From positions 73,968,001 to 74,032,000 of the forward strand of contig CM059432.1 of NCBI GenBank assembly GCA_030390025.1: a stretch of DNA of 64,000 nt. Direction: 5' to 3'. The position numbers and the translations under genes are program-made. This stretch comes from Squalus acanthias (lineage: Eukaryota). The notes beneath the pieces are model-generated. The model saw only the letters and a program-made list of their open reading frames with translations, was not told the origin of the DNA and ran no database searches. Positions 3,810 through 53,200 of the stretch are shown here, in pieces. How positions within the stretch are numbered: the first letter of the stretch is position 1; every line of letters begins with the position of its first letter.

Positions 3810-4870
3810 TTCTCTCCCTGAAAAGGAAAAGATGACCTAGAGCCAGTGCCAAAGAAATATAATCAGGAAGGAGCAGGGGTGATGAAAACTCCAACCACAC
3901 AGGAAGAGGAGGCTCTGCAAATCTTAGTCAGGCATACAGCAGAGCATATAGGAGAAAGGGAGTTAAGGTGGCAAGAGAAGGCTGGGAAATGCTCATCATA
4001 GGTAGTCTCAACTTTATGTGCTTTCTCAAAGTAATGCCCTTACACTCAAAACTATTTCTTAATGTGCAAATGTCACTCTACACATCTAAACAAGCTCCTC
4101 TGTGTTTTACATCACAGGGGGTGCCTTGCAGGAAAAATAACAGCCTTGACAAGGACCACCCATGCACTTCCACTGACAAATCTGCTGCCAGTTCCACAGC
4201 CTCAACTGTTGCCACCTCCTCACCAACTCCGTCATGGCATCGCACCTGCGTAAGCACCAACCCAGAGTCACCCAATCAGGAGGAAGTAACTATTGAGTCA
4301 GAAGGGTTTTCACCTGGTGAGGCACTGAACACGAGTTAGCATGAGGACCTGGGAGTGGAAGATAGGGAAAGTTCCTTTCCTCCACGGAGGAGTAAGAAAA
4401 GACCATCCTCGATTGAGGAGCCTATGGACCCATATCTCTGGCGAACAGTCTTCAAAAGAGCTATGATTAGGGAGTGTCAATTACATGTGCAGGCAGTGGA
4501 GACAGTTTCCTCGCATAAGGTTGAAATGATGGACAAATGGGAGGAGTTCACTACCCACAGCTGCAATACATTGTGAGAAATTTCCCACGACCTGCAGAAC
4601 AGCATGGAGACTGACAGCCCAGGAGATGCCAGAAACAGCTTCTACAGACTTTGGTGGTTTCCGAGTGGAAGCTACTATTGCTTCAATAGAAACCTTAAGG
4701 GCCAGCCTTAATGCCATACTTGCACAGGGCTTCCAAGACCTGGTTGGAACTATTCGGTCTGTGATAACACCAACCAGTAGTACCTCTGAACCTGTGCCCA
4801 GCACCAGTGAACTGCAGGGGGTGGTAGTAGATGTTACACTCTCTGGAAGACTGGAATCTGCATGAGAGCA
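3810..4870 (+). pseudogene. Probable downstream exons of another Harbinger Myb/SANT-partner gene (degenerate)
   Basis: Exon-like block ..QEEEALQILVRHTAEHIGE.., then a Ser/Thr-rich region and VESEGFSPGE-type motif (cf. ELVGFSPGD in the first element), then a coiled-coil-like segment. The layout matches 1505-2810. Confidence 0.5.
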
Positions 4871-5178
4871 GTCCATAGAGTGTATCCAATCTCGGTAAAG
4901 CCCACTGTCAGTGCTCTTTTCAAATGTTCACCCAGTCTGTTAAATCCAGCATTGGCAGATTCATGGTGCCAGTCAGTGTTTGCAAGAGAACATTGTTCTG
5001 ACCTTCTTTCCTAGCTGTTTTGTGGCTCCCCTGCAGATGGTTGTGAAGATGACACTCATGTCATGACTCTCTGCATTTGAGTAAATCCCTCCTACCATAC
5101 TATACAGATGTGAGTGTGAGTGTTGCAGCAGTGGTAAGTGTGTGCGGGTGAAGTAAAGCTATGATTGTGAGGTATGAG

Positions 5179-5339
5179 CAGTATTCCCTTTAAGCGCAGC
5201 TGTGCAGCTGTTTCGAGGTCCTGCGCAGCCAGTGAGCCACTTCCTAATGCAAAAAAACGCGCATGCGTGGAAGTTTGAATGGGCCGTGCAGCCCGTTAAA
5301 GGGGCCGCTGCAGCCCAAAAAAAAATAGGAGGAACATTG
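5179..5339. mobile_element. hAT-type MITE, copy 1
   Basis: TIRs CAGTATTCCCTTTAA / TAGGAGGAACATTG; 8-bp TSD GGTATGAG/GGTACGAG (7/8). Confidence 0.85.
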
Positions 5340-5462
5340 GGTACGAGTGGTGATTGGTTGAGATTGTTGGTAGGTGAGTGATAGGGGTGTGGTGCATTGA
5401 GTAGTATGTGAGGCTTGTGGTGCAGATGGTGGGATATGGCATTTGATAATGCATTCACTCAC

Positions 5463-5977
5463 CTTGATCACTCACATGAGGTAATTAAGCTTTTTGCGGT
5501 ATGGGATCCAGGTCCTGGGGACAATACTCGTTGAAGTGACAGCTTGAGCGATCTCCTCCCAGATCCTTCTTGAGGTCACCCTTGAAGGCCTCCTGCCTCC
5601 CTGCGGGTAGAGGACATCACGGCGTCTATGGACCTCCAGGACCAAGGCCTCCAGTGCTGCATCATGAAACTGTCTAGCCTTTTCCCTTGGCTGTTGGGCC
5701 TTGGCTTCCTTTCAACTGACAATGAGGTGCTTTTGCAACAAAGCACCTCCCCTTTAAGTAGTGGAGAGAGCCTAGGCCAAACTTTATTTGGCCATTAGAC
5801 CCAATATTGGCCCCCCTTTTGAGCGCTAAGCCAATCAGCAGTGCGTTTAGCGCTGAGATCAGCACTCCAATCATGTAAATAAGCAGGCAGCAGGAATTTT
5901 GCATGCTGCCTGCACCACTTTGAACAGGCGCTGGACGATGCCCCCACCCGTTTTCAGGCCTTATCCAATTCTAGGCC
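5463..5977 (-). mobile_element. Harbinger fragment: Myb/SANT exon 1 plus promoter and terminus
   Basis: Minus-strand translation PREKARQFHDAALEALVLEVHRRRDVLYPQGGRRPSRVTSRRIWEEIAQAVTSTSIVPRTWIPYRKKLNYLM*VIK, then a GTGAGT donor. TIR-like end AATTCTAGGCC at ~5967-5977. Confidence 0.8.
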
Positions 5978-6771
5978 TCTGAAACATGGCTGCAAGACGG
6001 TCAGGACTGGGAACTGAATATAGCAGGTCTACAGGAAGGATAGGGAATCTGGTAGAGGGGGAGGAGTTGCATTAGTGAGTAAGGATGAAATTACTTCTAT
6101 GATAAGAGGATGTAACGAGAGGTAAGCAGGCAGTGGAGACTTTATGGGTAGAATTAAGAAATAGAAAAAGATTTAAGACTGTAGTGGGAGTTGTGTATAG
6201 GCCCCCTGGTAGCAGCTGTGAAGTGCTAGTTTGTATAAATGCAGAGATTAGACAAGCATGTAGTAAAGGCAGAGTTTTTTTAATGGGGGATTTGAACTTC
6301 CATATAGATTGAGATAAGCAGATGAGCTCAAGTCAGAAAGGTAGAGAATTTCTTGAGTATATTCAGGACAATTTTCTGTAACAATATGTCCTAGAACCAA
6401 CAAGGGGGCAGGCCATATTATATTTAATAATGAGTAATGAGCCAGATTTAGTTAACAGTCTAACAGTGCGTGAACATTTATCTAATAGCGACCATCATAT
6501 GATTGAGTTCAATGTTGTTTTTGAAAGGGAGAAATGCGAAACAGCTACTAAAATTCTAGATTTTGCGAAGGCCGGCTTCAACAGGATGAGACAGAGACTG
6601 TCCACAGTAAACTGGGCAAATCTGTTAATGGGTAAAATGACAGAAGATCAGTGGGAGGTGTTCAAAAAAGAATTTAATGTGATACAGAACCAGTTTACAC
6701 CCCTAAGGAGCAAGAACTCTACTTGCCAAAAAAAATAGCCATGGTCGACTAAAGAGGTAAGAGACAACATA

Positions 6772-6996
6772 ACGGTTGTGAACATTTGGAATGCTCTGCC
6801 CCAAAGGGTTGTAGATGCTCAGTCATTGAGTACATTCAAGGCTGAGATAGATTTTTGGACTCTAGGAGAATCAAGGAATAGGGGGATCAGGCGGGAAAGT
6901 GGAGTTGAGGTCAAAGATCAGCCTTTATCTTATTGAATGGCGGAGCAGGCTCGAGGAGCCGTATGGCCTACTCCTGCTCCTAATTCTTACTTTCTT
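6772..6996 (+). mobile_element. CR1 3'-tail fragment inserted into CR1 ORF2
   Basis: Matches the CR1 tails at 13090-13330 and 57760-57960 (GGCCTACTCCTGCTCCTA..TTCTT); host ORF2 resumes after it. Confidence 0.85.
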
Positions 6997-7999
6997 ATAA
7001 AACTAAAAGAAAAAATGTACAAGAATGCAAAAATTAGCACAGATCCTGGCGAATGGGAAAGATACAAAGAACAGCAAAGTGTGACAAAACAGATAGGAAG
7101 AGCTACAAAAAGGGAGTATGAAAATAAATTTGCAAGGGATATCAAAATCAACACAAAGAACTTTTACAATTATATTAGGAAAAAGAGGGTGGTTAAGAAC
7201 AATGTGGTCCCCTTAAAAACTGATAATGGTGATGTTATAAATGAAAATAAGGAAATGGCGGACATGTTAAATAATTACTTTGTGTCAGTATTTACAGTAC
7301 AGGAAGAGGATAGTATGCCGGACACCTCAAGGAAACTAATTTGAATCTGGGCCGGGGACTCACCATAATTAACGTAAGCAAATTAACAGTAATGAAGAAA
7401 ATAATGGCACAAAAGAGTGACAAATCCCCAGGACCAGATGGTTTCCATCCCAGGGTTTTAAAGGAAGTAGGTGAGCACATTGCAGATGCCCTAACTATAA
7501 TCTTCCAAAGTTCTCTCAATTCAGGAACTGTTTCTTTAGATTGGAAAATTGCACATGCCACTCGCTATTTAAGAAAGGTGAGAGGGAAACCAGTGAATTA
7601 TAGACCAGTTAGCCTAACATCTGTTGTCAGGAAATTACTAGAGTCTATAATTAAGGACAGGGTGACTGAATACCTTGAAAATTTTCAGCTGATCAGAGAG
7701 AGCCAGCATGGATTTGTAAAAGGTAGGTCATGCCTGACGAACCTGATTGATTTTTTTGAAGTGGTGATTAAAGTAGTGGACAGGGAATGTTTATGGATGT
7801 TACTTATATGGACTTCCAGAAGGCATTCAATAAAATCCCTCATAAGAGACAGTTAGCTAAAATTGAAGCTCATGGAATTGCGGGCAAATTATTGACCCGG
7901 TTAGAAGATTGGCTGAGTGGCATGAGACAGAGATAAGGGATAAAGGGCAGGTACTCAAATTGGCAGGATGTAACTAGTGGTGTCCCACAGGGATCTGTG

Positions 8000-8172
8000 C
8001 AATGTTCCCCCTAAATTTCTTTTTGGGTGCGTAACCCCTTTAAGGGGCTGCGAAGCCTATTCACAGTTTCGTGCATGTGCAAAATTTAACATGGGAAAAA
8101 CAGGTCCCGGGCTGTGCGGGACCGGCAGAAAGCTGCGTGGCCGCGTGACCACACAGCTTAGAGGGAATGTTG
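8000..8172. mobile_element. hAT-type MITE, copy 2 (opposite orientation to copy 1)
   Basis: TIRs CAATGTTCCCCCTAA / TTAGAGGGAATGTTG; TSD GATCTGTG/AACCTGTG (6/8); splits the CR1 GVPQGSVLGP motif. Confidence 0.85.
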
Positions 8173-8201
8173 AACCTGTGTTGGGGCCTCAACTATTCAC
8201 T

Positions 8202-9458
8202 GGCCCAGAATTTGCAATCGGGATGGCGGCGAACCGGCAGCGTTTGCCGTCGTTCCGCCTTTGAAACTGACCGCAACTTTGGGATTTGGCACATGCACAT
8301 CGAAACGCGGAAATTCTGAAGTTGTGGTCTGAAAATGACAGCTCTGAAATAGGCTGCGCTGTGCTCCCACAGAGCCGGCAATCAGTGTAATCAATCAATT
8401 CAGGGAAACTGAGGAAAACTTCGGCTCTTCTGCAGTAAGTATGTTGTTAAATTCCCCATTAAAGTTAGACCCAAAGGAATTAGAACAGTGTAACTGGGGT
8501 TTTGACAGCATTATTACTGCTAAACAAATGTTAAGGGCTTGGAAAACTAATTTTAATTTTGTGCAGTGTGAAATTTGTCCTTTGGGGTGCTAACTTCGCC
8601 GGGGCGCTACTTTTAGTGTCCTGGAAAAATTAGCACCCCCGCGACAGAAATTGAGTGGCAGCGCCTCAAGAAGGAAGCGGGGCGCTACTGGAAGAGCCCC
8701 ACCTCCCTCTTGGGGCGCTGCAAGGGAATATCGCAGCGCTACGTGCCGCGGTATTACAGGCCTTCCTCCCCTTCTTAAAGGGGTCGGGAGCGGAGGCAGG
8801 TGCTGGCAGGTGGCCAGCAACAAAAATGGCCGCCCCGCACCTCGCCTTTAAATAGCGCCTCCCCGGCCGCAGGTAGGCCCCCCCTGACCCCGTCGGACAT
8901 AGCGTCTGGTGGTAAGTCAGGGGGCGCTCCCGAAGATCGCGGCCGGGGCGTGAGCGGGGCGTTGCGCACGGCAATGACATCATCGCCAGCGGCACAGCGC
9001 CGCGGGGCGCTACCGGTTACCGCCGCCGCTAACCTCCCGCTGAATTTCGCGGGAGGCGTTAGCGGCGCCGCACCTGGGCACTAGTTGCTTTGTGCCCCAT
9101 TAGCGCCCCCTTAGGGCACTAACGGGAGGCGCAAAGCAACTGAATTTTTCCCCCTAAAATTTTTAAGGAACTTTTCCAAATTTAAAAAACATTTTTTTAA
9201 AGTTTGTTCATCTTTATTTCAGGTTTGTCTTTTCCCCATGTGAGAGCCCCAATATTTGTTTTGCTCTCTCTAACATTTATAAAAAGTTAGAATTTTAAGA
9301 GCTTACTCACTTCCTTGTTCGCTGTCTGTGAGAATTCTGCGTTTTGATTGGCTGCTTAGACAGCCTGTTGACGTGACAGCAGTTCACACAAGAGAATCCC
9401 CACTAACTTCGTTGATTTCAATTGAAGGTCGGAAAACCCGAAGTTCTCAACACAGGCC
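8202..9458. mobile_element. Harbinger-type non-autonomous element with a nested GC-rich element (~8584-9154)
   Basis: Begins GGCCCAGAATTTGC and ends CAGGCC, with an ACT duplication (8199-8201/9459-9461); the CR1 sequence resumes exactly. The inner GC-rich piece has recurrent GGGGCGCT motifs and ends GAATTTTTCCCCC. Confidence 0.75.
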
Positions 9459-15743: not shown

Positions 15744-16395
15744 CGATGTGGTCTCCTCTACATTGGGGAGACCAAACGCAGATTGGGTGACCGCTTTGTG
15801 GAACACCTCCGTTCAGTCCGTAAGGGTGACCCCGAACTTCCGGTCGCTTGTCATTTTAATTCACCCCTCCACGCCCACTCAGACCTCACCGTCCTCGGCC
15901 TCGTGCATTGTTCCACGGAAGCTCAGTGTAAGCTCGAGGAACAGCACCTCATCTTTCGTTTAGGCACTTTACAGCCTTCCGGACTCAATATCGAGTTCAA
16001 CAATTTCAGATCATAACCTCGGCCCCTACCACATATATATACATTTTATCCACCCTTTTGGTCCCTGCCTTTTTCCTTTTTTTTCTCTCTCTCCCCCTAC
16101 CGCAGCTGTCTCTCATTCTGCCAGCATTTCACACCTCACCTTTTGTTTCTTAACCTGTCCCATTACCATCTCGTCTTGCCTTGAGCATCTCTTAATGTCT
16201 CTACTTACCATAGACCACCCCTTTTGTTCTTTTATTCCTCCCCCCAGCCTCCCCCTTGCATTTTTATGTTTAATTTCCTGCTCTTTTCTCAGTTCCGACG
16301 AAGGGTTTCGACCTGAAACGTTAACTCTGTTTCTCTCTCCACGGATGTTGCCTGGCCTGCTGAGTTTTTCCAGCGTTTTCTGTTGTTATTTAGGA
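15744..16395 (+). mobile_element. Penelope-like element fragment: GIY-YIG endonuclease C-terminus plus tail with hammerhead motif
   Basis: Uninterrupted frame 15744-16016 RCGLLYIGETKRRLGDRFVEHLRSVRKGDPELPVACHFNSPLH..LEEQHLIFRLGTLQPSGLNIEFNNFRS*, then a pyrimidine-rich UTR. Confidence 0.88.
16291..16326 (+). ncRNA. Minimal type I hammerhead-ribozyme-like motif (core variant CCGACGA)
   Basis: AGTT-CCGACGA-A-GGGT-TTCG-ACCT-GAAA-CGTT-AACT; U4>C relative to the canonical CUGANGA. Confidence 0.55.
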
Positions 16396-16499
16396 TTTGG
16401 AAGGTCTCATGTGTCCCTGTGTCTGCACCGTTGGTGCCCGTGTATATCTGAGTATCTGTCTCTACGTGTTTGAGTTTCTATCTCTTGCGTTCACCTTCC

Positions 16500-17320
16500 C
16501 CAGTGCCGACGTGTGCGTGCACTGACTGGGAGGACGGCGAGGCGGTAGTTCGGGGCGGTGCCGCAGGTGGCGCTGTGAGTGGCCGACTGCGAGCCCGGCA
16601 CTTCCGCTGCTGACGTCGACAGGAGCTGTTATTGTTGAGGCGGCGGCGGCTCGAGTGCGCAGTCACCGCGGACACAGCATGGCGTACGCTTACCTCTTCA
16701 AGTACATCATCATCGGCGACACAGGTGAGCGCTGAGCCCAGCCCCGGGCCCGTACAGCCTCTCGGCCCCGTGGGGATTGTCACTGCAGTGGGTGAGAGGA
16801 TGGGGACTCCCGCCAGCACCAGGCCTCTGCCTACGCCTCCCATCCCAGCCGGCTGCCAGCTCACCTGCCCGCCGCCGCTTTTAACCAGCGTCAAGTGCGG
16901 GGAAGTGGCCTCAAAGGACGCTAGAGGCCGGGGCAGAGGCGAACCATCTATCTCTGGTTCCGCGCCTGCTCCCGCTCCCCGGTGCCGAGACCACAAGTCT
17001 GGAGCCTGCGAGTGAGAGCTGGGCCCAGGGACCTGAGCACTGGGCGAGGGAGAGAAGGATTGCGGCCCGGGTCCCGTCGGCCGTGACTGCGGGTTAAACC
17101 TGCACCGAGACGTTTTGGGAGAAAGAAAAAGACAAACTTCCCCCAGGCCTTGATCTGCGGCCTCGGCCGTAAGTTGAATGTTGCTCCAATCTGGCTGCTG
17201 GCCCGGACCGCTCTGTTTCGTCTTTGCTTCGGTGTACGAGGCTTGGCCAAGCTGTACCGTGTTGTCCCCAGGATGGTGACACCGGTGCGTTTCGGGGGAG
17301 TGACTGAATCTGGTGCCATG
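16500..17320 (+). promoter_or_regulatory. CpG-island promoter / first exon region of RAB2A
   Basis: Strong local GC and CpG enrichment around exon 1. GC box GGGGCGG (~16552), CTCF-like CCGCAGGTGGCGC (16561), ETS CACTTCCG (16599) and CRE-like TGACGTCG (16611); no TATA box. Confidence 0.85.
16679..16724 (+). CDS. RAB2A: Ras-related protein Rab-2A, coding exon 1
   Basis: MAYAYLFKYIIIGDT(G); Kozak AGCATGG; donor GTGAGC at 16725. Confidence 0.98.
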
Positions 17321-21115: not shown

Positions 21116-24100
21116 GTAGAATTTATCACTTCTATGAAAAAGATTGTGAAAAATGCAATGCTCAGCCATCAATACATTGTTTTGTACAAACTGTAAAATG
21201 CAAAGATGGCAGGAGGATGAATGGCAACTCTGATCCAGTGTTTGTAAGTTTTAAAACTGTGTTCGGCAGAACTTGAATTCCAGTCATTCACTGAAAATAA
21301 GTAATAATCCCATTTGAGACTTGGACTATAATGTTATTGTGACCATGAGCACTATTGCCAACACATGGACTGGTTGTAACTGGTGTTACTTTGCTGGAAG
21401 TGTGCTGTAAATGTGGTTTCTGAAGCACTGCTGGCAAGGTAATGCTAGCGGAGCGGGAGCAGCTCCTATGAATTTCCTGGCCATGATTTTGGAACATTAT
21501 CTTTTTTGGAGTATTGATTATAGAATTAAAGTTTGCCAGGTTTAATGTCACTTCTATATTGGTGCTCGTCTACCAGGAGCGGCACTCGTGGAGACCTATG
21601 ACCTCAGCGTCACTTTTTACTGCAACTGCTGGTACACTGTTGGAGGGGCCTGTGTTTTCTGCTCCGCTGGCTGCTATTGGGAGCCATGAAAGGTTGGGCC
21701 CCAATTTTGTCATTTTCTAGCGTGCCATCATAGTGGAAACACATTTTGGGGGCAGAGTGCATAACCTTTTATCAGCTGATTCAGTAGGTTGGGAGCAGCC
21801 CATGCTTGAGCAGATTTTAGGGACTATAACGAGTGTGTTTGATAGACCAAGTCAACTTTTGATTCCGTTAGTTTTTCTAATTACTGAATTTCTTAAAGGA
21901 GTCATGTTGCATAACTAAAATCACTTTCTTCTGGCAGGATTTAAGGCATTGTTTATTTTCAGGCTAGATTTTTAAAGAGTCTGCATCAAATTTTTTGGCT
22001 ATTCTATCATGTGATTAATATGACGTTGCAGCTTCTGGGAAATATGGTAACATTCCAGTGATATTTCTAGTTTAAAAAATTATTTGAACAAGTTCAAAAA
22101 TAGCTCGTTAAAGAAAAACAATATGCTGAGCTATTACTGACCATTCCTGGCTTGGGCAGCTCTTTATTGGTACCTATGGCTGCCCATATATATTGATCTA
22201 CAAGTTTCTGTGTGGAATGGTGATGCCTACTGCTGATTGCCTAGCAGGGGAAGAGCACAAAATCTAGATACCCATGGACTAAAATTGAATAACTTAACGT
22301 TATCTCAAGCAAGTGGGAGATTTCACCTTTATTTTACTGTTGCATAGTTATGGAGGGGGGGGGGAACGAGACAAGGGAGAAATGCTTTCAATATGAAGTC
22401 AACCCACATGTTATTTCATCACTGTGGCGCAATTACATTTTCAGGAATAATTCATGTTTTGTAGTGCCTGAGGCTGAAATTTACAAGTAGAATGTGAAGC
22501 TAACATTAGTGACTTGTTTCTGTCACAGCCTATTTTGGAGGGCTAGAGCTGGGAAGGGGGAGGACTAGAGCTGGGTAGGGAAGAGCATCGATGGTGAGTT
22601 TGTTCTGATATGTGCACCCTTACACCCTATTGCTACTTAACTAATTTGTGGCAACCATTCTTATTCTGTTGCCTGATTGCTAACTAAACAACCCTCAAAG
22701 GTCCAGAAAGTAAGCCTTAGTTTCTAATTAATTGTAACCGTTACATAAAAATCTGATAGGATATGAGCTATTTATAAGTAAAGTTTCGTATGTGCAATCC
22801 TCATTGTTTGTATATCCCTTGTTGTAAGTTTTTTTTATTTAGCACATCTGAATCTAAATGTGACTCTAATTTTTGTGTCAAACTAAGATTCAGAACTGGT
22901 GGGAGTGCTGTCCTTATAAATATAGTATCGGAGCTCTATAAGCAGTTCTAATTCTTTGATTCTGAATTGTTTGCAGTGTTACTGCTGTACAAAAAAATGC
23001 AATTTAATAAGCTTTAATGTGTGAATCTGTTGCAGGAGTGTCATTCTTAATTCATGTCAAATTGTTCCACTACCAACAATAGCCATGTAGCCATCAGATT
23101 TTACCCTGGCATTCAAAATGTTGTCACCACTCAATCCTACATTTGAAAGAACAAAATACTTTCACTGCTGGATGTTCACAGTTGAAGTGTGCATAGCATG
23201 AAAATTGCTCATGCCCACCATTACACTTTGCTGCAATCCTACTTTCAACACTGAATCAGTGTATCCTGATGTACATTAGCATCTTTTCATTGGTTTGAGT
23301 AGTTCTTGCCCACCCAAACAATACTGCAATGCCATGGGGAAAATGGATTTTTCATAAAAGGATGTAATTATTGCATTCAACTTAATTAATTGACTATGAC
23401 AACTGTGGTGAAAGTTGCAGAGACGTCCAGAAAGCGTTCATCACGAGTGCGTTAATGTTACCATGAAATTGAACAGTTTGGCTCTAAATTTAAAACTATT
23501 GTTTACCAATTTTTTAAATAGATAGTAAGCAGGAGTTTCGTACAATAGTTAATAATCTGGATGTAGTAGAAGCACGATTTTTAATTTATACGTTCTGTTG
23601 GAGGTATTTGAAATGGCAACTGATTTAAAGGTGACATATTCCTAATTAGTGTGCTATGTGGATTACAATCTATAATTTTATACTTTAAAAAATAATCAGA
23701 AGGGTATGCTTGACACCTGTAGGATGCTCTTTGTGGGCAGGCTGCACAAACTGCAAGCTGTGTTCTAATCTATGCAGCATGACACTGTTTCGTATGCTGC
23801 TCAAGAAGCCGTGATGTACAATTGACTCACCATTGATTGCATCACTGCAGCTGACTGAAGGGGATTGGAACAGCTGGTGCAGAGATATGGTGGCATTTTT
23901 AAAATCTACTCGTATAAAAGCTTAAAGGTATTTCAGTATTACCAGCACTTCTGTTGTATTATTTTGTTTCTTTGAGATGTAGCGGTGTTAAATCAGATTT
24001 GGAAATTTATAGAACACCACACCACATTTGTTACGCTTGATTGTAGCCAAATACATTGATCCTTTCCTTCTATTAATTTCACATTGCTTAACAGGTGGAG

Positions 24101-24514
24101 CCCTTCATGTTTGCTGCAGGTGTAATTAAATAAATACAAGTTCATTTTATTTTTCCTTGTCCTGTCCTGCAGCATTCCGAACAAATTTATGAAGTTTGAG
24201 TCTTCAACGATATAAAGAATTTTTAATGTTTGTTGCCAATGACACCATAGTATGAGGTTTCTGATGGTAAAATGGTTGGAGTTTCTTCTGTCATAAAAGG
24301 AATTTGAAAAATGTTTAAATTTGCTTTAAACATTCAATGTATTATCACTTGTCTCCTGCTTTTCTAACATTTTCTCATGGAGGTCATCTAGCTATATTGA
24401 ATGTAATTTCTTATCGCAAGCTATTTCACAATAGGTGTCTCGGTCTAATCAGACACTCTACTGAAACATACTCATTCATGCATCCCTTTTGCAAAGCAGG
24501 CGTGTGTCTATTTT

Positions 24515-24750
24515 ACTTTTTTACGCAACGAGTGGTTAGGATTTGGAATGCACTGCCTGATAGGGTGGTGGATACAGATTCAATAGTAGCCATCAAAAGG
24601 GAATTGGATAAATACTTGAAGGAGAAAAAGTTGCAGGGATATGGGGAAAGAGGTGGGGGAGTGGAACTAACTGGATTGCTGCTCTTCAAAAGAGCCGGTG
24701 CAGACTTGATGGGCCGAATGGCCGCCTTCTGTGCTGTACTATTCTGATTT
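24515..24750 (+). mobile_element. CR1 3' end
   Basis: FFTQRVVRIWNALPDRVVDTDSIVAIKRELDKYL plus GATGGGCCGAATGGCC tail. Confidence 0.88.
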
Positions 24751-26295
24751 TTGTAAACCACTTTGGCACCATTTTTTGCATCACTGTATTCTCACAAGCT
24801 ACACCATCAGTGATATGTTGCCCAGATTGCTTAGTGTCTAGTTAGCAAATTTAATTAATCTGGATCTTTTCTGCTAGGTCTCCTTTTTTAGTTTGCCTGC
24901 TTGATGGGTCGACAATGAGAAATGGTATCTTGGGTTTGAGTCTGACCACAGTAATGTAGTTTATACAAATGTATGTACAGTGACTGACAGGAAAAGACGC
25001 AGTGGTCCATCCAGCCTGCCCCACAGAACTGCGATGCCTGAACTTCATAACATATACACTCCCCACCTGAAAGCCATGTAATTTCTATGCATTGACTCAT
25101 CACCAGGTTGCCTGCGTACACACTAACTCATCTGTTGATGCAGATGTGAAAATAAGTTCAAAACATAACTTTATTGGGAAAAACTTTGTGGCTGTAATTC
25201 AAATGAAGGATTCGTGTATCTGAAATCTTGAGCAAAGCTAGAGCACTTTATCTGAAACCTGAAGTTGGGGCTGAACAAAGTGTGCTGTGGCAATCCTCAC
25301 AGATGTTACAGAAATATATATAAAAGCTATTTTCAATTCACAATTTAAAAGCTCCCATTGAGGGTTTTAAATTCACATTTTAAACCTTCAACAGGAGGGT
25401 TTAAAGTGTGAACTTAATCTGCTTAAATTTTTCATGGCTATATCAATCTCCTGTGGTGTTGCACTCTAGTCAAAACCAAGTGTAGTCTTGTGGTGAAGCA
25501 GAGTTAGAGGGCAGGAGATAATTTGTTCCAAGTTGCATAGACATAATTCAGGCTTCATTTTAAAGTCATACATTTTGTCCTTATTTTTATATTTCTAAAC
25601 TATGTAAACCTCTTGTGCTACAACACCTCCACTGTTACTAGGATGTGATTATAGTGTGAAATTTACATGTGCAGATATAAACATTTTAATATATAAAATG
25701 CTTCCTGTCCTGTGGCTAGGTTGGGATCCGAATCAGTATTTAATGAGATCAGTATTTTAGAGCAGCGATGCACTCAAGTTTTGATGGGGTCAGACAGGTT
25801 AAGGAATTCTCAGAATCTGCTCGAGATTCATGGTTACTCTGCATTATAACTATCTAGATGGCATCTGTTACTGAGTTCCTTTTTAAAAAAAAAAAAATAG
25901 AAGACCAGTGATAGGAATATATTTTCAGCAGTTTTCTAGTACTATTTGCATAAACAGAACATTTTCAGGATTTGGGCTAGAGTGCATTGCTGTTTTGAGT
26001 TTAATTGTGTGTAAGTGATAGGTGCTGTCCTAGAGGCTTTGCCATTTTAAGCACTTTAATAAATTGCTGGAATCACAGTCCATTACCTAACTCACTCAGT
26101 TAACTAGCTAACGATTATGTGGATTGGAGATTTTCCATTGTTACAAAACATATTTAGGTGTATAATGTCTTAAATTACTATAAGGGTCTACGGTACAGAC
26201 TATTACATGCTCAGATTAGAAAAGATGTATTTGCCAGTAACTGTTAACTGCAGTTATAGAACATAAGTGACAAACTCCCAAAGTTCCTAATTGAG

Positions 26296-26297
<2 letters not shown>

Positions 26298-26329
<32 letters not shown>
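26298..26329. repeat. (TC)16 microsatellite
   Basis: Direct observation. Confidence 0.97.
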
Positions 26330-26332
<3 letters not shown>

Positions 26333-26410
26333 ATATATTGGCTAATAGTGTGACGAAACAAAATGCTCAAATGTAGGCATGCCTTCTGACAAGGTCGACA
26401 ATTATGATTT

Positions 26411-26995
26411 AACACCTCCATTCAGTCCATAAGGGTGACCCTGAGCTTCCAGTCGCCTGTCACTTTAATGCTCTGCTCCACTCCCACTCTGACCTCTGTC
26501 GTTGGCCTCTTGCACTGTTTCAATGAAGCTCGGAGTGGCACTTTACAGCCTTCTGGACTCAACATTGAGTTCAACAATTTCAGACTATAACCTCTACCCC
26601 TATTTTTTTTATTTTTTTCTCTCGGCAGCTGTTGATCATTCTGCCATTTACACTTCATCTAGAGCCATCTTTTGTTTCTTAACTTGTCCCAATACCATCT
26701 CCTTTTGCCTTGCACCATCATCTCTTTTTTGTCTCTTAATCTCTCTTGCCTTCCATCCTCCTTCCATCCTATCACAGACCTTCCCTTTTGTTCTTTCCTC
26801 CCCTCTCCCTTTCCCTGCCCCAACACTTGCTTAAAAACCTGTTCCACCTCCAGCTTTTTCCAGTTCTGACGAAGGGTCATCGACCTGAAACGTTAACTCT
26901 GTTTCTCTCCACGGATGCTGCCTGACCTGAGTATTTCCAGCATTTTCTGGTTTTATTTCAGATTTCCAGCATCTAAAGTATTTTGCTTTTGTATT
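26411..26995 (+). mobile_element. Penelope-like element fragment (copy 2)
   Basis: Aligns to 15800-16395 (AACACCTCC.TTCAGTCC.TAAGGGTGACCC..GAGTTCAACAATTTCAGA), with the same tail. Confidence 0.88.
26862..26898 (+). ncRNA. Minimal type I hammerhead ribozyme motif, intact core
   Basis: AGTT-CTGACGA-A-GGGTC-ATC-GACCT-GAAA-CGTT-AACT. Stem I AGUU/AACU, 5-bp stem II, palindromic ACGU in place of stem III, GUU cleavage triplet. Confidence 0.7.
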
Positions 26996-27066
26996 ACTGT
27001 TAAGAATTAATTGTATATTATGTAGCTTTTTATGAGTTACTGATGGCGTGCAAAGAAAAGCTCATT

Positions 27067-27740
27067 GGGCCAGATTTTGCTGTGACCGGCAAACGAACAG
27101 CACCATCCATGTGTTAGACTTGCACTTGGCCATCGACTTTTTCCATGAGGGCAAGTTGCTGTCAGTGGGACATCCAGACGGTGCGAAGCTCTCTGAACAG
27201 GGCAAGCAACTCAATTTCCTTAATCAATCAGATTGAAGAATTGTTAATGAGCAGTAGAGTCCAAATCCCCAGAAATGTCAAGATAGAATATTGAATTCAA
27301 TGTCAAATCAGGTACTGAAAGCTAAATAGAAGGAAAGAAAGATTGGATTAAGAGAGCGATAAGAGACAAAAGTTTAAGAAAAATATATATTTTTTAAATA
27401 AATAAACCTCCCAATGCTAATTAAAAGCTGAAGGACTGAGACTCCACACTTGTAAAAGTTTTCAGTGCCAGAAAAGTTGTTTGATAGTAACTATAACTTA
27501 CCATGCTGTTAAGAGGGTACTTACACTGTGTTTAATCTGTATCTACGATGTCAGTACAGGAACTTCACGGTGTTCAATACATTCGAATGGGGAGCCAGAT
27601 GGCACGATCCTGGACAGCAGCTTCTGGATTTTTGCGTTTAACTGCACATGAGCACTTGCCAGAAGTTGCTGTCTGATTTTCACATAAATAACGGTGCGTG
27701 TTGTTAGCCTCACAGTTATTTTCGCAGCAAAATCTGCCCC
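27067..27740. mobile_element. Harbinger-type MITE (family B)
   Basis: TIRs GGGCCAGATTTTGCTGTG / CGCAGCAAAATCTGCCCC (16/18); flanks ATT/AAT. Confidence 0.88.
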
Positions 27741-27819
27741 AATGTAAATTTATTCAGCAAGGCAAACAATGGAAATCGTATCGTGAATTTGATGGGCTAT
27801 TTAATGTGATGTATTTCTC

Positions 27820-28078
27820 CTGGAATCATGGAATGGTTACAGCACAGGAGGAGGCCATTCGGCCTGTTGAGTCCGTGCCGGCTCTAATAGCATTTCAGCT
27901 AGTCCCATTCCCTGTAGCCCTGTAAATTTTTTTCTTTCAGGTACTTAGCCAATTCTCTTTTGAAAGCCACAATTGAATCTGCCTCCACCACCCTTTCAGG
28001 TAGTGCATTCTGGATCCTAGCCACTCACTGCATAAAGTTTTTCCTCATGTCGCCTTTGGTTCTTCTGCCAATCACCCT
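27820..28078 (-). mobile_element. CR1 3' end
   Basis: Near-identical to 57965-58240; reverse complement of a CR1 tail. Confidence 0.85.
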
Positions 28079-28338
28079 ACCCACACAGAATTTTTAATTT
28101 ATTGGAGCAGGTCTAGTAATGTTGTATTGGTGCACTGTTAACACCATCTATCCATAATAAAAATGTAAACATCTCCATTTCTTACATTTTTAAAAAACTT
28201 GTAATAGAAATATAATTAGCTTTTGCAGTTAACTTTAAACTGCAAGATAAAGGGCTACAACTTTAATTGGAATGGCAGACTTTTAGAAAGCTTCTAGGTA
28301 TCTGTTCTATAAATATCCTCAAGTTAATGGGTTACCTA

Positions 28339-28768
28339 ATCAGCTTGGTTCAGTTGCAAGTATTCTTGTATCTGTACCAGAAGGTTGTGGGTTCAGATTC
28401 CACTACGAATGTGAGCACATAATCTAGCCTGTGCTGAGGGAGTACTGCATTGTTCAGGGCACCATCTGACCAGCGGGATGCTAAACTGAAGTCTGTGTCC
28501 CTGTTCTGATGTTTTAGGTAAATTTAAAAGGTCTGTGGTACTGTTTGAAGAGGAGCAGGCAATTTTCCTGATGTCCTGGCCAACATTCCTCTCAACAAGT
28601 GCCATTAAAACTGTAACTGGTCATTCATCTCCATTACTATTTGTAGGATTTTTTTTGAAAAAATCAGCTACTGTTATCCATGTAAGTGACTTCACTGCAA
28701 AAGTAATTTGTTCTGAAGAGATTTAGGACATTCTGAGCATACAATAATACCCTGCATAAATGTGAGTT
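28339..28768 (+). mobile_element. Deu-domain SINE, degenerate
   Basis: CAGAAGGTTGTGGGTTCAGATTCC B-box region; GAAGAGGAGCAGG..TGTCCTGGCCAACATT body. Confidence 0.7.
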
Positions 28769-29184
28769 AAGATGTTACCTTTTTTAAATTCTGTCTGACT
28801 TCAGATTTCCCTCCAGGGGCTAGAGTTATAAGTAGGCTTCCCCAACCAAGTTTTAAATACTGTGTTTTATCTATACTATGTCTTGGAGAAAATTTACAAC
28901 ACTTGATTTTGGATTTGAGTGCACTTCAATAAGCATGCTTGTAGCTGCTATATTGAAAATTGCCAGTGAGTGTTAACGTCACCATATCTTTGGGTTATTG
29001 GTTGTAACTTTGATTACACCCAGAATCTGGCTTTTCTGGTCAACATCGAGGAAAGCGATAGCGAGACCCAGTGATTGTAACACAGAACCCTTATTCTTTG
29101 CACCAGCTACTGGAATTGTCATTTTCTTCTTTTGAATGGCAGACATACCAATTGTAGGCGTTGGACCAACAAGTGGTTTTATTT

Positions 29185-30624
29185 ACATAAGGATTACAAA
29201 GGATATACAGCACAGAAACAGGCCATTTGGCCCAACCAGTCCATGCCGGTGTTTATGCTCCACTTGAGCCTCCTCCTGTCTTTCCTCATCTAACGCAGTA
29301 TAACCCTTCCAATTTCCCTCATACTTATCTAGCCGCCCCTTCAATGCATCTATACTATTCGCCTCAACTACTCCGAGGTAGCGAGTTCCACATTCACACC
29401 ACTCATTGGGTAAAGAAGTTTCTTCTGAATTCCCTATTGGATTTCTTGGTGGCTATCTTATATTGATGACCTCTAGTTATGCTCTTCCTCGCAAGTGGAA
29501 ACACGCTGTATCTACTCTATCAAAACCTTTCATAATTTTAAAGACCTCAATTAGGTAACCCCTCAGCCTTTTTTCAAGTGAAGAGACCCAGCCTGTTCAT
29601 CTGTTCCTGATAAGTATACCCTTGCATTTCTGGTATCATCCTTGTAAATCTTCTCTGCACCCTCTCCAGTGCCTCTCTATCCTTTTTATAAATTGGAGAC
29701 CAGAATTGTATGCAGTACTCCAAGTGTGATCTAACCAAGGTTTGATACGAGCTTAGCATAACTTAACAACTTTTCAGTCCTATCCCTCTCGAAATAAATC
29801 CTAGTGCCTTGTTAACCTGTGTTGCTACTTTTAGTGATTTGTGTATTTGTACACCGATCCCTTTTCTCCTCTACCCCACCCAGACTTGCACCCTCCAAGT
29901 AATAAGTGACCTCCCTATTCTTCCTACCAAAATGTAATACCTCACATTTGTGTTGAATTTAATTTGCCAATTATATGTCCATTCTGCAAGTTTATTAATG
30001 TCTTCCTGTAATTTGTTAGTTTTCCTCAGTATTAACTATCCCTGCCAATTTGGTGTTATCTGCAAATTTAGAAAATGTTTTTGATTCCAAAGTCTACATC
30101 GTTAATATAAATTGTGAATGACAGTGGTCACAGCACTGATCATTGTGGAACACCACTACCCACCTTCTGCCACTGAATAGCTACCCTTTACCCCTACTCC
30201 CTGCTTTCTGTCTTGAAGCCAGCTAGCTATTCATACTGCTACTTGTCTCCATACTCCGCATTATCTGACCTTTATTTTATTCTATTATGTGGTACCTTAT
30301 CGAAGGCCTTTGGAAAATCTAGATAAATTACATCTTCTGCATTACCCTTGTCTACTCTCTGTTACCTCTTCAAAGAATTCAATGAGGTTGGTCAAGCAAG
30401 ACTTTCCCTTTCGAAATCCATGCTGACTATTCATTGTTAGATTTTTGGCCTCTAGATGTTCTATTTTCTCCTTTAGTAGGGATTCCATTATTTTTCCTAC
30501 CACCAATGTTAAGCTGACTGGTCTATAGTTCCCTGGACATGTTCTATCTCTCTTAAATATAGGTATTATGTTAGCTATCCGCCAGTCCTCTGGCGCTACA
30601 CCTTTTTCTAATGAATTATTAAAT
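29185..30624 (-). mobile_element. CR1 LINE (RT to 3' tail), degenerate
   Basis: [49 protein letters not shown] and QHGF motifs on the minus strand. Confidence 0.88.
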
Positions 30625-30913
30625 TGTGTCCAAAAATGTGTGGGTTAGGTTGATTTGGCTATGATAAATTGACCCTTAGTGTTAGGGGGGGGATTAAATA
30701 TGTGGGGTTATGGGGATAGGATGGGATATGGTAGGGGGAATTAAATACGTGGGGTTACGGGGGTAGGGTGGGATATGTGTACTGTGGGGATTAAAGCAGG
30801 GACAGGGTACTGGATTTGGATGATCAGCCATGATCGTATTGAATGGTGGAGCAGGCTCGACGGGCCGAATGGCCTACTCCTGCTCCTAGATTCTATGTTT
30901 CTATGTTTCTATG
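30625..30913 (+). mobile_element. 5'-truncated V-SINE-like (HE1-like) element with a CR1-derived tail
   Basis: TCCAAAAATGTGTGGGTTAGGTTGATTTGGCTATGATAAATTGACCCTTAGTGT V-domain-like block; CR1 tail ending in TTTCTATG repeats; flanking TAAAT duplication. Confidence 0.7.
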
Positions 30914-31571
30914 TAAATGTGTAGTAAAGAGATGAATAGTATAAGTGAAATATATATTACTCTACATTCTTCAAATACATAAACAATAAATATGCCATTC
31001 ATTTTTCTCTAAATATAGGCCTCAAGCAAGTTACTTGCTATAACCTAAATCTAGCCTAAATTCCCTCGTTGGGCTGGTACTGAAACTTTTGACAAAACAA
31101 ATAGCCCCCTGGCTGTTGGCTGCAAGATTCTAACGCTGTCTGACATCCTAGTTTTGTATTTAAAACATGTTAAATGGGCTGAACACTTGCAAAGAGATCA
31201 TTCAGATGTAAAATCTTTTAGTTTGTGGCTTTTATCAAACTTTTGGACACTGTTGTTTTGCATTTTAATTTTAAAAGATTAGGTCCATACTCTGAACACA
31301 TTTTAATGTAGGTCAGTGACTTGCAACAAATATTTTAGAATAGTCAAAACCTGCATCTATTACATGCTAACTATTGACACCATCTGTGTGCGATTGGCTA
31401 ATGTTTGTGTTGCTCTTAACAGTAACAATAACTACATATTGCAGTATTCTCCAAGATCTTTCATCAGTGGTATTGCTTTTAGATGTTTGGAATTAGTATT
31501 GGTTTGTTAGGTGAACTTTTTCAACGCTGTTTCCATTTAATTAAGTAACATTAGCAGCCAAATGAAATAAT

Positions 31572-32283
31572 GGGCTGGAAATTGCTGAAAAAAATAACAG
31601 CATGCAAATGGCATATGTGCAAATCAGCCAGCAACAGGAAGATATACTTCATGAATTGTGAATCGCCACAGGTTGCTGGATGATTTGTGCCACTCCACCA
31701 TTAGCTTTGTGAAAATAGCATCTCTCCCTTAACCTCAGTTTCATGAAGTTGCTGCATTTGCACATTAAACTCAAAAGCGAAGTCTGGTAATTAATAACAT
31801 AAGTACCCTTTTAACACTGTGATAATTGTTAATGACTATCACTAAACCTCTGACCCAGAAAGTGAACAATTAAGTGTGGAGTCTCATTCCTTCAGGTAGT
31901 GAATTGTTGGAGATTTTAAAAATGTAATTTTAATTTTTTTAATTACTTTTCCTTTCTGTCTCTTGTCTGTCTGAATCCATCTTTCTTTCCCTCATTTCTT
32001 TTTGTACCTGATTTGACATTGGGTGAATTAGAATGGGTGAATTCATTCTAATTCACCATCCTTCTCAGTCCTTGCTCTGTTTATTAATCCTTAAATCTCA
32101 TTGGTTAATGAGATAGACTGTTGGTCCTCTCATTCACAAGTCCAAAATGCCCTGTTGCCCTTGCCATGCTGTTATCGGCCTGCACCTCCAGCAACTTGGA
32201 CAAAGATTTTTTGAAGTGAAGGGTGCAGGAAAAAGTCTAACTGGGCATGTTGCGAGATGCCCTGCTCCAGCAAATTCCAGCCC
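31572..32283. mobile_element. Harbinger-type MITE (family B)
   Basis: TIRs GGGCTGGAAATTGCTG / CAGCAAATTCCAGCCC (15/16); perfect AAT TSD. Confidence 0.92.
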
Positions 32284-43640: not shown

Positions 43641-43790
<150 letters not shown>

Positions 43791-49719: not shown

Positions 49720-50267
49720 TCAAGCAAAAGCAAAATACTATTGAAGCTGGAAATCTGAAATAAAAACAGAAAATGCTGGAAATGGTCACCTGGTCAGGCA
49801 GCATCGATGGGGGAGAGAAACCAAGTTAACTTCAGGTCGGTGACCTTTCATCAGAACTGGAAAAAGTTAGAGATTTAACAGGTTTTAAGCAAGTGCAGGG
49901 GCAGGGAAAGGGGGGAGGAAAGAACAATTGGGAAGGTCTGTGATTGGGTGCAACCCAGGAGATATTAAATGACAAATGGGATGATGGTGCAAGGCAAAAG
50001 GTGATAGTAATGGGACAAGTAAAGAAACACAATATGGGTCTGGGAGAGGTGTAAATGGCAATAGCAGAATCAGTACCAACAGCCGCTGTCTGGAAAAAAT
50101 GGGAGTGGTGGTTATCTGAAATTGTTGAACGCGAGTCGGAAGGCTGTAAAGCGCCTTATCGAAAGATGAGGTGCTGTTCCTTGCGCTTCCGTTGAGCTTC
50201 ATTAGAACTGTGTACGAGACAGAGGACAGAAGTAAGAGTGGGAGTGTGGCGGAGAATTAAAATGACA
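49720..50267 (-). mobile_element. Penelope-like element fragment (copy 3), including a broken hammerhead motif at 49824-49858
   Basis: Reverse complement of the 26411 family; motif AGTT-CTGATGA-A-AGGTC-ACC-GACCT-GAA-GTT-AACT (AC deleted). Confidence 0.86.
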
Positions 50268-53200
50268 GGATTAGGGCTTGTGGGTTGGCGCAATAGCATA
50301 GATTGGTTAACACAGAAAAGAGTAGGAACAAACAGGTCATTTTCAGGATGGCAGGGTGTAACTGGTGGAGTGCTGTCAGGATCAGTGCTTGGACCTCAGC
50401 TATTTACAATCTATATCAATGACTTGGATGAGGGGACCGAGTGTAATATATCCAAGTTTGCTGACGATACAAAGCTTAATGGGGAAGTAAGCTGTGAGGA
50501 GGACGCAGAGGCTGCAAAGGGATGTAGACCGGCTAAATGATTAGGCAAGAAGGTGGCAGATGGAGTATAATGTTTATGGAGTGTGATATTATCCCCTTTT
50601 GTTAGGAAGAATGGAAAAGCAGAATATTTTTTAGAAGGTGAGACTAGTAAATGTTGGTATTCAGAGGGATTTGGGGGTCCTTCAACACTAATCACCAAAA
50701 GTTAACATGCAGGTACAGCAAGCAATTAGGAAGGCAAATAGTATGTTAGCATTTATTGCAAGGGGATTGGAATATAAAAGTAAGGAAATCTTGCTGCAAT
50801 TATCTAGGGCTTTGGTGAGACCACACCTGGAGTACTGTGTACAGTTTTGGTCTCCTTACCTAAGGAAGGATACACTTGCTCTAGTGCAACAAAAGGTCAC
50901 TAGATTGATTCCTGGGATGAGACGATATAAGAACATAAATAGGAACAGGAGTAGGACTTTTGGCTCTTCGAGCCTGCTCTGCTATTCAATAAGATCATGG
51001 CTGATGATCTACCTCATGTCCACTTTCCTGCACTATCCCCAAATCCCTTGATTCCCTTAATATTCAAAAATCTATCGATCTCTGTCTTGAATGTACTCAA
51101 TGACTGAGCCTGCACAGCTGTCTGGGGTAGAGAATTCCAAAGATTCACCACCCTCTGAGTGAAGAAATTTCTCCTCAGTCCTAAATGGCTGACCCCTTAT
51201 TCTAAGACTGTGGCCCCTGGTTCTAGACTCCACAGCCAGGGGAAACATCCTCCCTGCATCTACCCTGTCAAGCCCTGTAAGAATTTTGTATGTTTCAATG
51301 AGATCACCTCTCATTCTTCTAAGCTCTAGAGAATATATCCCTAGTCTACTCAATCTGTCCTCATAGGACAATCCCCCCATCCCAGGAATCAGTCTAGTGA
51401 ACCTTCATTGCACTCCCTCTATGGCAAGTATATCCTTCCTTAGGTAAGGAGACCAAAACTGTACACAATACTCCAACTGTGGTCTCACCAGGGCCCTATA
51501 TAATGGCAGTAAGACATCTTTACTCTTCTACTCAAATCCTCTTGTAATAAAGGCCAGCATACCATTTGCTCTTGCTGTATCTGCATGTTAACTTTCAGTG
51601 ATTCGTGTACAAGGACACTCAGGTCCCTCTGAACACCAACATTTCCCAATCTTGCACCATTTAAAAAATACTCTGCTGTTCTATTTTTCCTACCAAAGTG
51701 GATAACTTCATATTTCTCCACATTATATTCCATTTGCCATGTTCTTGGCCATTCACTTCGCCTGTCTCTATCCCCTTGAAACCTCTTTGCATCCTCCTCA
51801 CAACTTACATTCCCATCTTGCTTTGTATTATCAGCAAACTTGGGTGTATTACATTTGGTCCCCTCATCCAAATCATCGATATAGATTGTGGATAGCTGAG
51901 GCCCAAGCACTGATCCTTGCGGTACCCCACTAGTTACAGCCTGCCAACTCGAAAATGACCCGTTTATTCCTACTCTTCTGTCTGTTAACCAATCCTCAAT
52001 CCATGCTAGGATATTACCCCCAATCCCATGAGCCCTAATTTTGTTAACCTCTTTTGTGTGGCACCTTATCGAATGCCTTCTGAAAATCCAAATACACTGC
52101 ATCCACTGGTTCCCCCTTATCTATTCTACTAGTTACAACCTCAAGAAACTCCAACAGATTTGTCAAACATGATTTCCCTTTCATAAATCCATGTTGACTC
52201 TGCTCAATCCTATTATTTTCTAAGTGCCCTGTTACCACGTCCTTAATAATAGATTCTAGCATTTTCCCTACTACTGATGTCAGGCTAACTGGTCTGTAGT
52301 TCCCTTTTTTTTTCTCTCCCTCCTTTCTTAAATAGTGGGGTTACATTTGCTACCTCCAGTCTGTGGGAACTGTTCTAGAATCTATGGAATTTTGGAAAAT
52401 GACAACCAATGCATCCACTATCTCTATAGCCACCTCTTTCAAAACCCTAGGATGTAGGCCATCAGGTCCAGGGGAATTTATCAGCTTTCAGCCCCATTAA
52501 TTTCTCCAGTAGTTTTTTTTATACTAATACTAATTTATTTCATATCCTCGTTCTCGCTAGAGCCTTGGTTCTCCACTATTTCCGGGAAGTTTTTTGCATC
52601 ATCTTCTGTGAAGACAGACACAAAGTATTTGTTTAATTTCTCTGCCGTTTCCTTATTCCCCATTATAATTTCTCCTCTCTCAGCCTGTAAGGGACCCACA
52701 TTTACTTTTGCTAATCTTTTCCTTTTTACATACCTATAGAAGCTTTGAGTCTGTTTTTATGTCTCTCGCTAGTTTACTCGCATTCTATTTTCCCTTTATC
52801 AATTTCTTGGTCCTCCTTTGCTAAATTCTAAAATCCTCCCAATCATGCTTATTTTTTTTTGCCAACATTATAAGCCTCTTCCTTTGATCTAATACCATCT
52901 TTAACTTGTTAGCCACGGTTGGACCACTTTTCCTGTGGGGTTTTTGTGCCTTAAAGGAATGTATATTTGTTGTAAATTATGTTTTAATTCTTTAAATGCT
53001 AGCCATTGCTTGTCGACCATCCTACCTCTTAATGTAGTTTCCCAGTCTACCTTAGCCAGCTCGCCCCTCATATGTAGTTTGCTTTGTTTAGATTTAAGAC
53101 CCTAGTTTCTGATTTAACTAAATCACTTTCAAACTCTATATAAACGTCTCATATTATGGTTACTCTTCCCTAAAGGCCCCTTTACTACAAGGTTATTAAT

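Follow-up and report, generated by a model that had tools for sequence, protein, structure and literature searches.

The hammerhead motif at positions 26862–26898 of the 64,000-nucleotide stretch of DNA analysed here (the window) is very probably a minimal hammerhead from the pLTR of a Penelope-like element (PLE) of Neptune type; a 5′-truncated, dead copy of that element brought it into intron 1 of RAB2A, where it is likely to be an inactive passenger. Sequence analysis placed RAB2A coding exon 1 at 16679–16724 (ATG at 16679, end approximate) and coding exon 2 at approximately 43690–43761, both on the forward strand, with later exons on the same strand near 60.1k, 60.8k and 62.7k, others past the window and a stop codon at ~126.6k in window-extended coordinates. 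Exon 6 was closest in the PDB to Rab-2A (E 4.9e-18, compared with 1.8e-16 for Rab-2B). The motif falls between coding exons 1 and 2 on the forward strand, in agreement with the sense-strand, intron 1 setting claimed in an earlier note on this DNA.

A minimal type I hammerhead motif in the window

A descriptor for minimal hammerheads (stem I of at least 4 bp, CUGANGA, an optional extra base, stem II of 4–8 bp, GAAA and UH) gave a single match when both strands of the window were scanned, namely the motif at 26862–26898 on the forward strand. The 37 bases read letter for letter as in the earlier note, and the descriptor parse reproduced each of the parts described there, that is, the core boxes, stem I, a 5-bp stem II, the extra A and the ACGU palindrome. 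Stem I comprises 4 bp (26862–65 with 26895–98), and the CUGACGA box at 26866–72 is followed by an extra unpaired A at 26873. Stem II comprises 5 bp (26874–78 with 26882–86), with a 3-nt loop and a G-U pair at the junction, and the GAAA box at 26887–90 is followed by CG and UU. The palindrome ACGU at 15.1–16.1 stands in place of stem III, and N17 is U. The predicted scissile bond is 26894/26895, so that the proposed cut after 26894 holds as a predicted position.

The bare core pattern was not above chance in the window (5 matches compared with 6.15 expected), and the significance of the motif is therefore carried by its stems. The descriptor matched none of 150 first-order Markov control sequences of 64 kb. 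Covariance models gave no support for the hammerhead, in that an Rfam scan of 22000–32000 returned no hammerhead match at E≤10; the Rfam hammerhead models presuppose a complete stem III.

The motif lies in a truncated Penelope-like element

Alignment of relatives and junction sequences delimited a 5′-truncated Neptune-type copy from 26411 to ~26996 (586 bp, forward strand), with no clear target-site duplication (TSD) in the junction sequences. About half of its 29 closest relatives align from 26411; relatives run further upstream into EN and RT, several of them with longer EN/RT frames. Repeat alignment and these EN/RT-bearing relatives establish the Penelope-like context that had been proposed and, taken with the descriptor match, identify the motif as a type I hammerhead of the minimal kind, located in the pLTR of a Penelope-like element.

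Six-frame translation and alignment showed that 26411–26590 (forward strand) is a frameshifted and deleted remnant of the C-terminal GIY-YIG domain, with about 60 broken codons. The copy begins downstream of the GIY-YIG motif, which is consequently absent from the 180-base coding remnant, and gave no Pfam match. The intact counterpart of the remnant is present in loci L041 and L003. The autonomous relative L041 has a single 943-codon ORF, with RT followed by a C-terminal GIY-YIG, whose Pfam RVT_1 and GIY-YIG matches fall below the curated cut-offs. In both loci a C-X4-C-X2-C linker precedes EN, fitting the CX2-5CxxC definition in PMC8557442, where this linker is described as common to Neptune and Nematis. 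The element is accordingly placed as apparently Neptune-type (Neptune/Nematis layout by the definitions of PMC8557442), on the basis of the linker motif rather than of a tree.

Two further segments lie downstream of the ribozyme on the forward strand. The pLTR segment at 26899–26961, defined by copy alignment and folding, contains a predicted hairpin (26914–26944) whose pairing persists across subfamilies: of 121 copies, 116 have at 26942 either A (U-A 86) or G (U-G 30), paired with 26916. This hairpin is a candidate protein-binding or RT-initiation element. An optional PLE tail of ~35 nt follows at 26962–26996, as judged from copy 3′ ends, and continues into the ORF leader in young tandems.

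Many ORF 5′ ends are 100% identical across 297 bp, indicating that the element family is young. Among 30 loci with such young ORF 5′ ends, a sense upstream pLTR reaches past the 5′ edge of the ribozyme in 21; five begin inside or after the ribozyme, and four have no upstream pLTR or only an inverted piece. In none of the 30 does the upstream pLTR begin at the scissile bond. The ribozyme stands ~110 nt upstream of the ORF leader in the young tandems, and from the pLTR-ORF tandem layout it follows that full elements carry two hammerheads in cis, ~3.2 kb apart.

Three other copies of the element were found around the gene. The copy at 15802–16398 is on the forward strand and has a broken core (U4 to C) and a shortened stem-loop II; that at 49725–50269 is antisense (reverse strand) in RAB2A intron 2, with a deletion that breaks the GAAA box; and a further antisense copy at ~79.9k has a core with G8 to A. 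The first of these stops ~280 bp upstream of the RAB2A ATG on the same strand, likely in the promoter region, and the start site in its pLTR might conceivably provide RAB2A with an alternative promoter.

Other repeats interrupt or adjoin members of the family. In about 800 copies (806 pattern matches; loci L238–L267 inspected) the ribozyme is split in the stem III palindrome by MITE-like elements of 0.7–1.1 kb, bounded by terminal inverted repeats of GGGC type, with what seems to be a duplication of 3 bp. The 5′ half of the ribozyme was found upstream of the insertion in 13 of 30 loci (15 were flagged by the script, of which two look spurious), and the palindrome has the look of a hotspot for insertions of PIF/Harbinger type. 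Within the window, 27068–27739 is taken up by a MITE-like element whose terminal inverted repeats are of this same kind, ~70 bp downstream of the Penelope copy. A composite repeat, consisting of an inverted pLTR-tail pair that lacks the ribozyme 5′ half, recurs in shared flanks (L042:6195–6330, L175, L176, L182, L135 and L164) and would represent a fold-back of Penelope sequence that some other repeat picked up and carried with it as it multiplied. At L032, L033 and L036 (C1, ~6.99–7.13 Mb), truncated copies occur every 1.6–1.7 kb in a larger duplicated unit, beside gag- or protease-like frames.

Variation and abundance of the hammerhead

We collected 261 copies, of which 178 remained when groups chosen for similarity across the ribozyme were dropped; 121 of these span the ribozyme. 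The common variants inside the motif in the 121 copies are at N7, loop 2 and position 10.1. The pair 10.1–11.1 is A-U in 56, G-U in 53 and G-C in 3, both A and G pairing with U11.1, and the unpaired A between 9 and 10.1 and the ACGU palindrome are the majority state. In a second Penelope family the core, the extra A, the lengths of the stems and the two-base palindrome are all the same, but the stem sequences are different ones that pair throughout; its hammerhead has G10.1-C11.1 and a variable loop 2. This family gave at least 28,090 pattern matches (for example at loci L170, L182, L185, L198 and L202), and three of seven inspected matches lie downstream of GIY-YIG remnants. As to whether the family consensus preserves core boxes and stems, a question posed by the earlier note, the 121-copy alignment and the compensatory stems of the second family show that it does. 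The structure-preserving variation between subfamilies and between the two families indicates that the hammerhead fold has been kept by selection on active parent elements.

After insertion, the core accumulates changes at least as fast as the tail beside it, with no sign of selection. Non-CpG core sites differed from the majority in 3.5% of cases (42/1210) compared with 2.4% for tail sites (91/3751; p=0.065), a comparison biased by anchoring, since the tail was the anchor for collecting copies and its divergence is therefore biased low. The motif is intact in 65 of the 121 copies, making intactness the usual state of a copy, although this figure is biased because most copies were anchored on the stem I flanks (only 7 of 19 are intact among those not so anchored). 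The window copy carries 4 rare alleles in 157 sites, so its intact 37-mer is unremarkable, and there is no sign that it is special among family members.

The suggested abundance of the element family was borne out by genome-wide counts. A tight pattern gave 24,531 exact matches in the genome (reversed control 0), which is a lower bound on element copy number, and a flank-anchored pattern gave 27,838. Forty arbitrary 10-kb windows contained 28 tail fragments and 14 descriptor-intact hammerheads, seven from this family and seven from the second. Extrapolation from these 40 windows gives ~130,000 intact hammerheads genome-wide for both families (Poisson 71,000–218,000) and ~65,000 (26,000–134,000) for the family of the window copy.

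Ends of genomic copies and a putative transcription start

The 3′ ends of copies form two clusters, at ~26956–26962 and 26991–26996. These match the pLTR end and the 30–40 bp tail; the equivalent positions in the Anolis element are two sites at which reverse transcription begins (PMC11167929).

At the 5′ side, we considered whether copies start at the cut site (a cleavage footprint as for R2 elements) and rejected this reading. Copies without both upstream Ts at the scissile bond numbered 349 of 43,770 (~1.6% if a detection rate of 0.5 is assumed) and were mostly inversions, internal deletions and MITE junctions, with clean starts in about 6 of 30 inspected. Starts at the stem I A (26862) gave 875 matches compared with 32,111 continuing upstream, or ~10% when corrected for a presumed detection rate of 0.25; 12 of 30 inspected had TSDs of 10–16 bp and lengths of ~100 or ~133 nt, although two of them may be one duplicated event. 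A further 825 matches start at C3, and inspection of 30 by eye gave 12 clean starts and 18 inversions. In the arbitrary windows, 5 of 15 copies reaching C3 begin at most 4 bases upstream of it. Among the best-supported rows listed, contigs of three further organisms show loose, heterogeneous ends at 26861, 26863 and 26867. The 5′ ends of the second family pile up at an A three bases before stem I (1,821 matches compared with 28,090 continuing); of 20 inspected, 16 were flagged as inversions and 2 had TSDs. A control position inside stem III is confounded by MITE insertions, so that the genome counts have no clean neutral-position control; what the comparison relies on is the count at the cut site together with the sample histogram.

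The initiator consensus is YYANWYY. An initiator-like match at 26860–26866 (forward strand) has as its A position 26862, the first base of stem I and the family-wide 5′-end hotspot, and one subfamily context of the pile-up A in the second family also fits the consensus. The element is probably transcribed from the first base of stem I onwards, a putative assignment drawn from DNA junctions, in several of which the TSD overlaps the first 2–5 bases of the element (microhomology). Internal promoters and Inr-like sequences have been described in pLTRs (PMC2377424, PMC3846280). A cap-like extra G was not clearly enriched in the family of the window copy (47 of 100 among the matches listed, by hand count), and the extra bases after TSDs are mixed. 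If transcription starts at stem I, upstream pLTRs longer than start-to-tail would need read-through, circular or switched templates.

Splicing at a 3′ acceptor, namely the polypyrimidine-CAG whose last base is 26863, could instead have produced the cluster of 5′ ends at stem I, as could a microhomology bias. A pyrimidine tract ending in CAG is indeed found directly upstream, the intron of the D. virilis Penelope ends at helix I (PMC4209133), and the overlap of TSDs with the first element bases would fit the latter. However, clean copies keep the AG that splicing would remove and are without a constant upstream exon, and the pile-up in the second family occurs in the absence of an AG acceptor. 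In that family a G stands directly upstream in 83 of 100 among the matches listed (hand count), a cap-like feature, although inverted arms, flagged at 16 of the 20 loci inspected, confound it. On balance we regard splicing or microhomology as an unlikely source of the cluster. The short copies also bear on the suggestion in the earlier note that GIY-YIG+HHR units are an abundant non-autonomous family. Such units, or the HHR-first units of ~100/133 nt, might amplify independently in the manner of retrozymes or SINEs, given the discrete short class with TSDs that starts at stem I and the proposal that vertebrate non-LTR retrozymes derive from PLE pLTRs (bioRxiv 10.64898/2026.07.22.740005). The longer copies, on the other hand, have 5′ ends spread across hundreds of bases and extend into RT, the short copies share the tail variants of both subfamily types of long copies (by eye), and the window copy is solo, with no tandem of ribozyme units. 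Because young autonomous parents (the 943-codon RT+GIY-YIG ORF and the pLTR-ORF tandems) are present in the same genome, we read the short units as variably 5′-truncated products of autonomous RT+EN elements, and consider a separate family decidedly unlikely. The genomic record of copy ends argues that insertion templates were mostly uncut at the hammerhead, many of them beginning at its first base.

Cleavage of the RAB2A pre-mRNA is unlikely

Nearest-neighbour folding, which ignores tertiary contacts and proteins, gave a monomer MFE of −9.1 kcal/mol in which core U4–G8 is paired with the cleavage-site strand. The fold with stems I and II has −5.9 kcal/mol and an ensemble probability of 0.2%, and an active-like dimer has −8.5 kcal/mol compared with −22.9 kcal/mol for the dimer MFE. 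Published tests point in the same direction as the predicted misfolding of the monomer: a single min-HHR of S. mansoni gave no cleavage and dimers gave low cleavage only (PMC4209133), and the HHR of the Anolis PLE cuts only with protein and is dispensable for insertion in vitro (PMC11167929).

Between the window start and the RAB2A stop codon there was no second intact sense hammerhead that could partner the intron 1 motif, by a descriptor scan reaching 124 kb and a relaxed scan reaching 164 kb. Since intact hammerheads are so dense genome-wide, a gene of 110 kb should contain about two intact ones in sense orientation, and RAB2A contains one. Given that the gene has no second intact sense copy and that the monomer is predicted to misfold, cleavage of the RAB2A pre-mRNA at the lone intronic copy appears unlikely. 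Together with the absence of core selection and the expected number of motifs, these results do not sustain the view of the motif as a meaningful self-cleavage site in this transcript. A contig from another organism's run (X19, record 16) crosses the element 3′ junction and flank (window 26944–27151) with 17 differences and 9 gaps; its diverged flank is a weak hint that the insertion may be shared with another organism and not very recent.

It could be argued that the intronic copy is cut in vivo by trans pairing or by the element protein, thereby lowering or regulating the RAB2A pre-mRNA. The core and stems are intact and in the sense orientation, the intact copies of the family, many of them in introns, form a plentiful pool of possible trans partners, young autonomous elements could supply the protein, and protein-assisted cutting has been reported for the Anolis element (PMC11167929); the X19 contig adds its weak hint of an insertion that is not very recent. 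Yet the gene offers no partner in cis, the intermolecular stem III would be just 4 bp and the active-like dimer lies well above the dimer MFE, the core is not conserved family-wide after insertion, about two intact sense motifs would be expected by chance in a gene of this length, and the 10.1–11.1 pair is G-U instead of the highly conserved G-C (PMC4209133). We therefore hold cutting of this kind to be very improbable. We give a similarly very small probability to the broader proposition that sense intronic copies genome-wide are latent cut sites, which trans dimerisation or the element protein would switch on, in every setting with expression of the element, to sever host pre-mRNAs such as that of RAB2A. 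That the motif merely resembles a hammerhead by chance, with no ribozyme ancestry, might be read from the lack of an Rfam match and from a folding z-score of only −1.29. The control sequences without a single descriptor match, the compensatory stems across two PLE families and the canonical pLTR position refute this at the level of sequence and structure, and its probability is negligible. The preferred reading remains that of a PLE-derived hammerhead carried as a passenger.

Discussion

In the mechanism that we propose for the parent element, transcription would start at the first base of stem I, and a full transcript would therefore carry a hammerhead at each end, ~3.2 kb apart. The two terminal hammerheads could pair via their ACGU palindromes, possibly with the element protein, and so cut out a unit-length RNA. 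Most reverse transcription would use uncut or religated RNA and would initiate about 65 or 100 nt 3′ of the cut; this would account for the presence of the whole motif in copies. A lone intronic copy would rarely cut, because it has no cis partner and its core is predicted to form an inactive hairpin.

The single RAB2A site is of little weight, being one of tens of thousands of passengers of a known type, and the locus itself would become important only if cleavage of the host pre-mRNA were demonstrated. The family is of modest use as material: its autonomous parents are young, its stems can be compared with the compensating ones of a second family, and the genome preserves an extensive record of copy ends. 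This record makes the function of PLE hammerheads testable.

Host-conserved intronic hammerheads such as amniote HH9/HH10 are single-copy loci conserved under selection, with a canonical helix III. The present motif, unlike these, belongs to a multicopy repeat in neutral decay and has no helix III loop. Our literature search found neither this family nor the clustering of start sites described; Repbase, Dfam and the supplements of PMC4209133 and PMC11167929 may list such motifs or 5′ ends.

The closest likeness is to the min-HHRs of metazoan PLEs (Cervera and De la Pena 2014, PMC4209133), which share the type I core, a 4-bp helix I, an unpaired base between 9 and 10.1, the lack of a loop 3, a palindromic 15.2–16.2, the pLTR location and the occurrence mostly as solo copies from truncated PLEs. 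The motif has the CUGANGA, GAAA and UH boxes, a helix I within the 4–5 bp of this class and a closing helix II. In the metazoan set G10.1-C11.1 is highly conserved (PMC4209133), whereas helix II here has 5 bp with R10.1-U11.1. The R-U pair may lower activity and does not exclude membership under the descriptor; G-C is a trend outside the search descriptor. Abundance also differs, with ~10^5 intact copies here for the two families together compared with 4,000–9,000 for coelacanth and Xenopus (PMC4209133).

Animal non-LTR retrozymes (bioRxiv 10.64898/2026.07.22.740005) likewise have type I HHRs from PLE pLTRs and occur as dispersed monomers, many of them intronic (~43% in introns for those of Xenopus). 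They are defined in that preprint as non-coding tandems of at least two HHR units, whereas the window copy is solo and has an EN remnant. In PAc, a Poseidon element of Anolis (Frangieh et al. 2024, PMC11167929), two 3′ ends similarly bound a tail downstream of the HHR and no ends are described at the cleavage site, as seen in RNA reads for PAc and in genomic copies here. The PAc ORF starts inside the HHR (PMC11167929), in contrast to the ribozyme upstream of the ORF leader and the Neptune-type linker of the present element. With the Neptune-clade EN+ PLEs (Craig et al. 2021, PMC8557442) the family shares the single ORF of RT and C-terminal GIY-YIG, the CX2-5CxxC linker and an HHR in the pLTR, as well as partial tandems forming pLTRs, inverted 5′-truncated copies and an optional 30–40 bp tail, all of which we found here. 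What distinguishes the window copy from those elements is that it is a dead 586-bp 3′ fragment.
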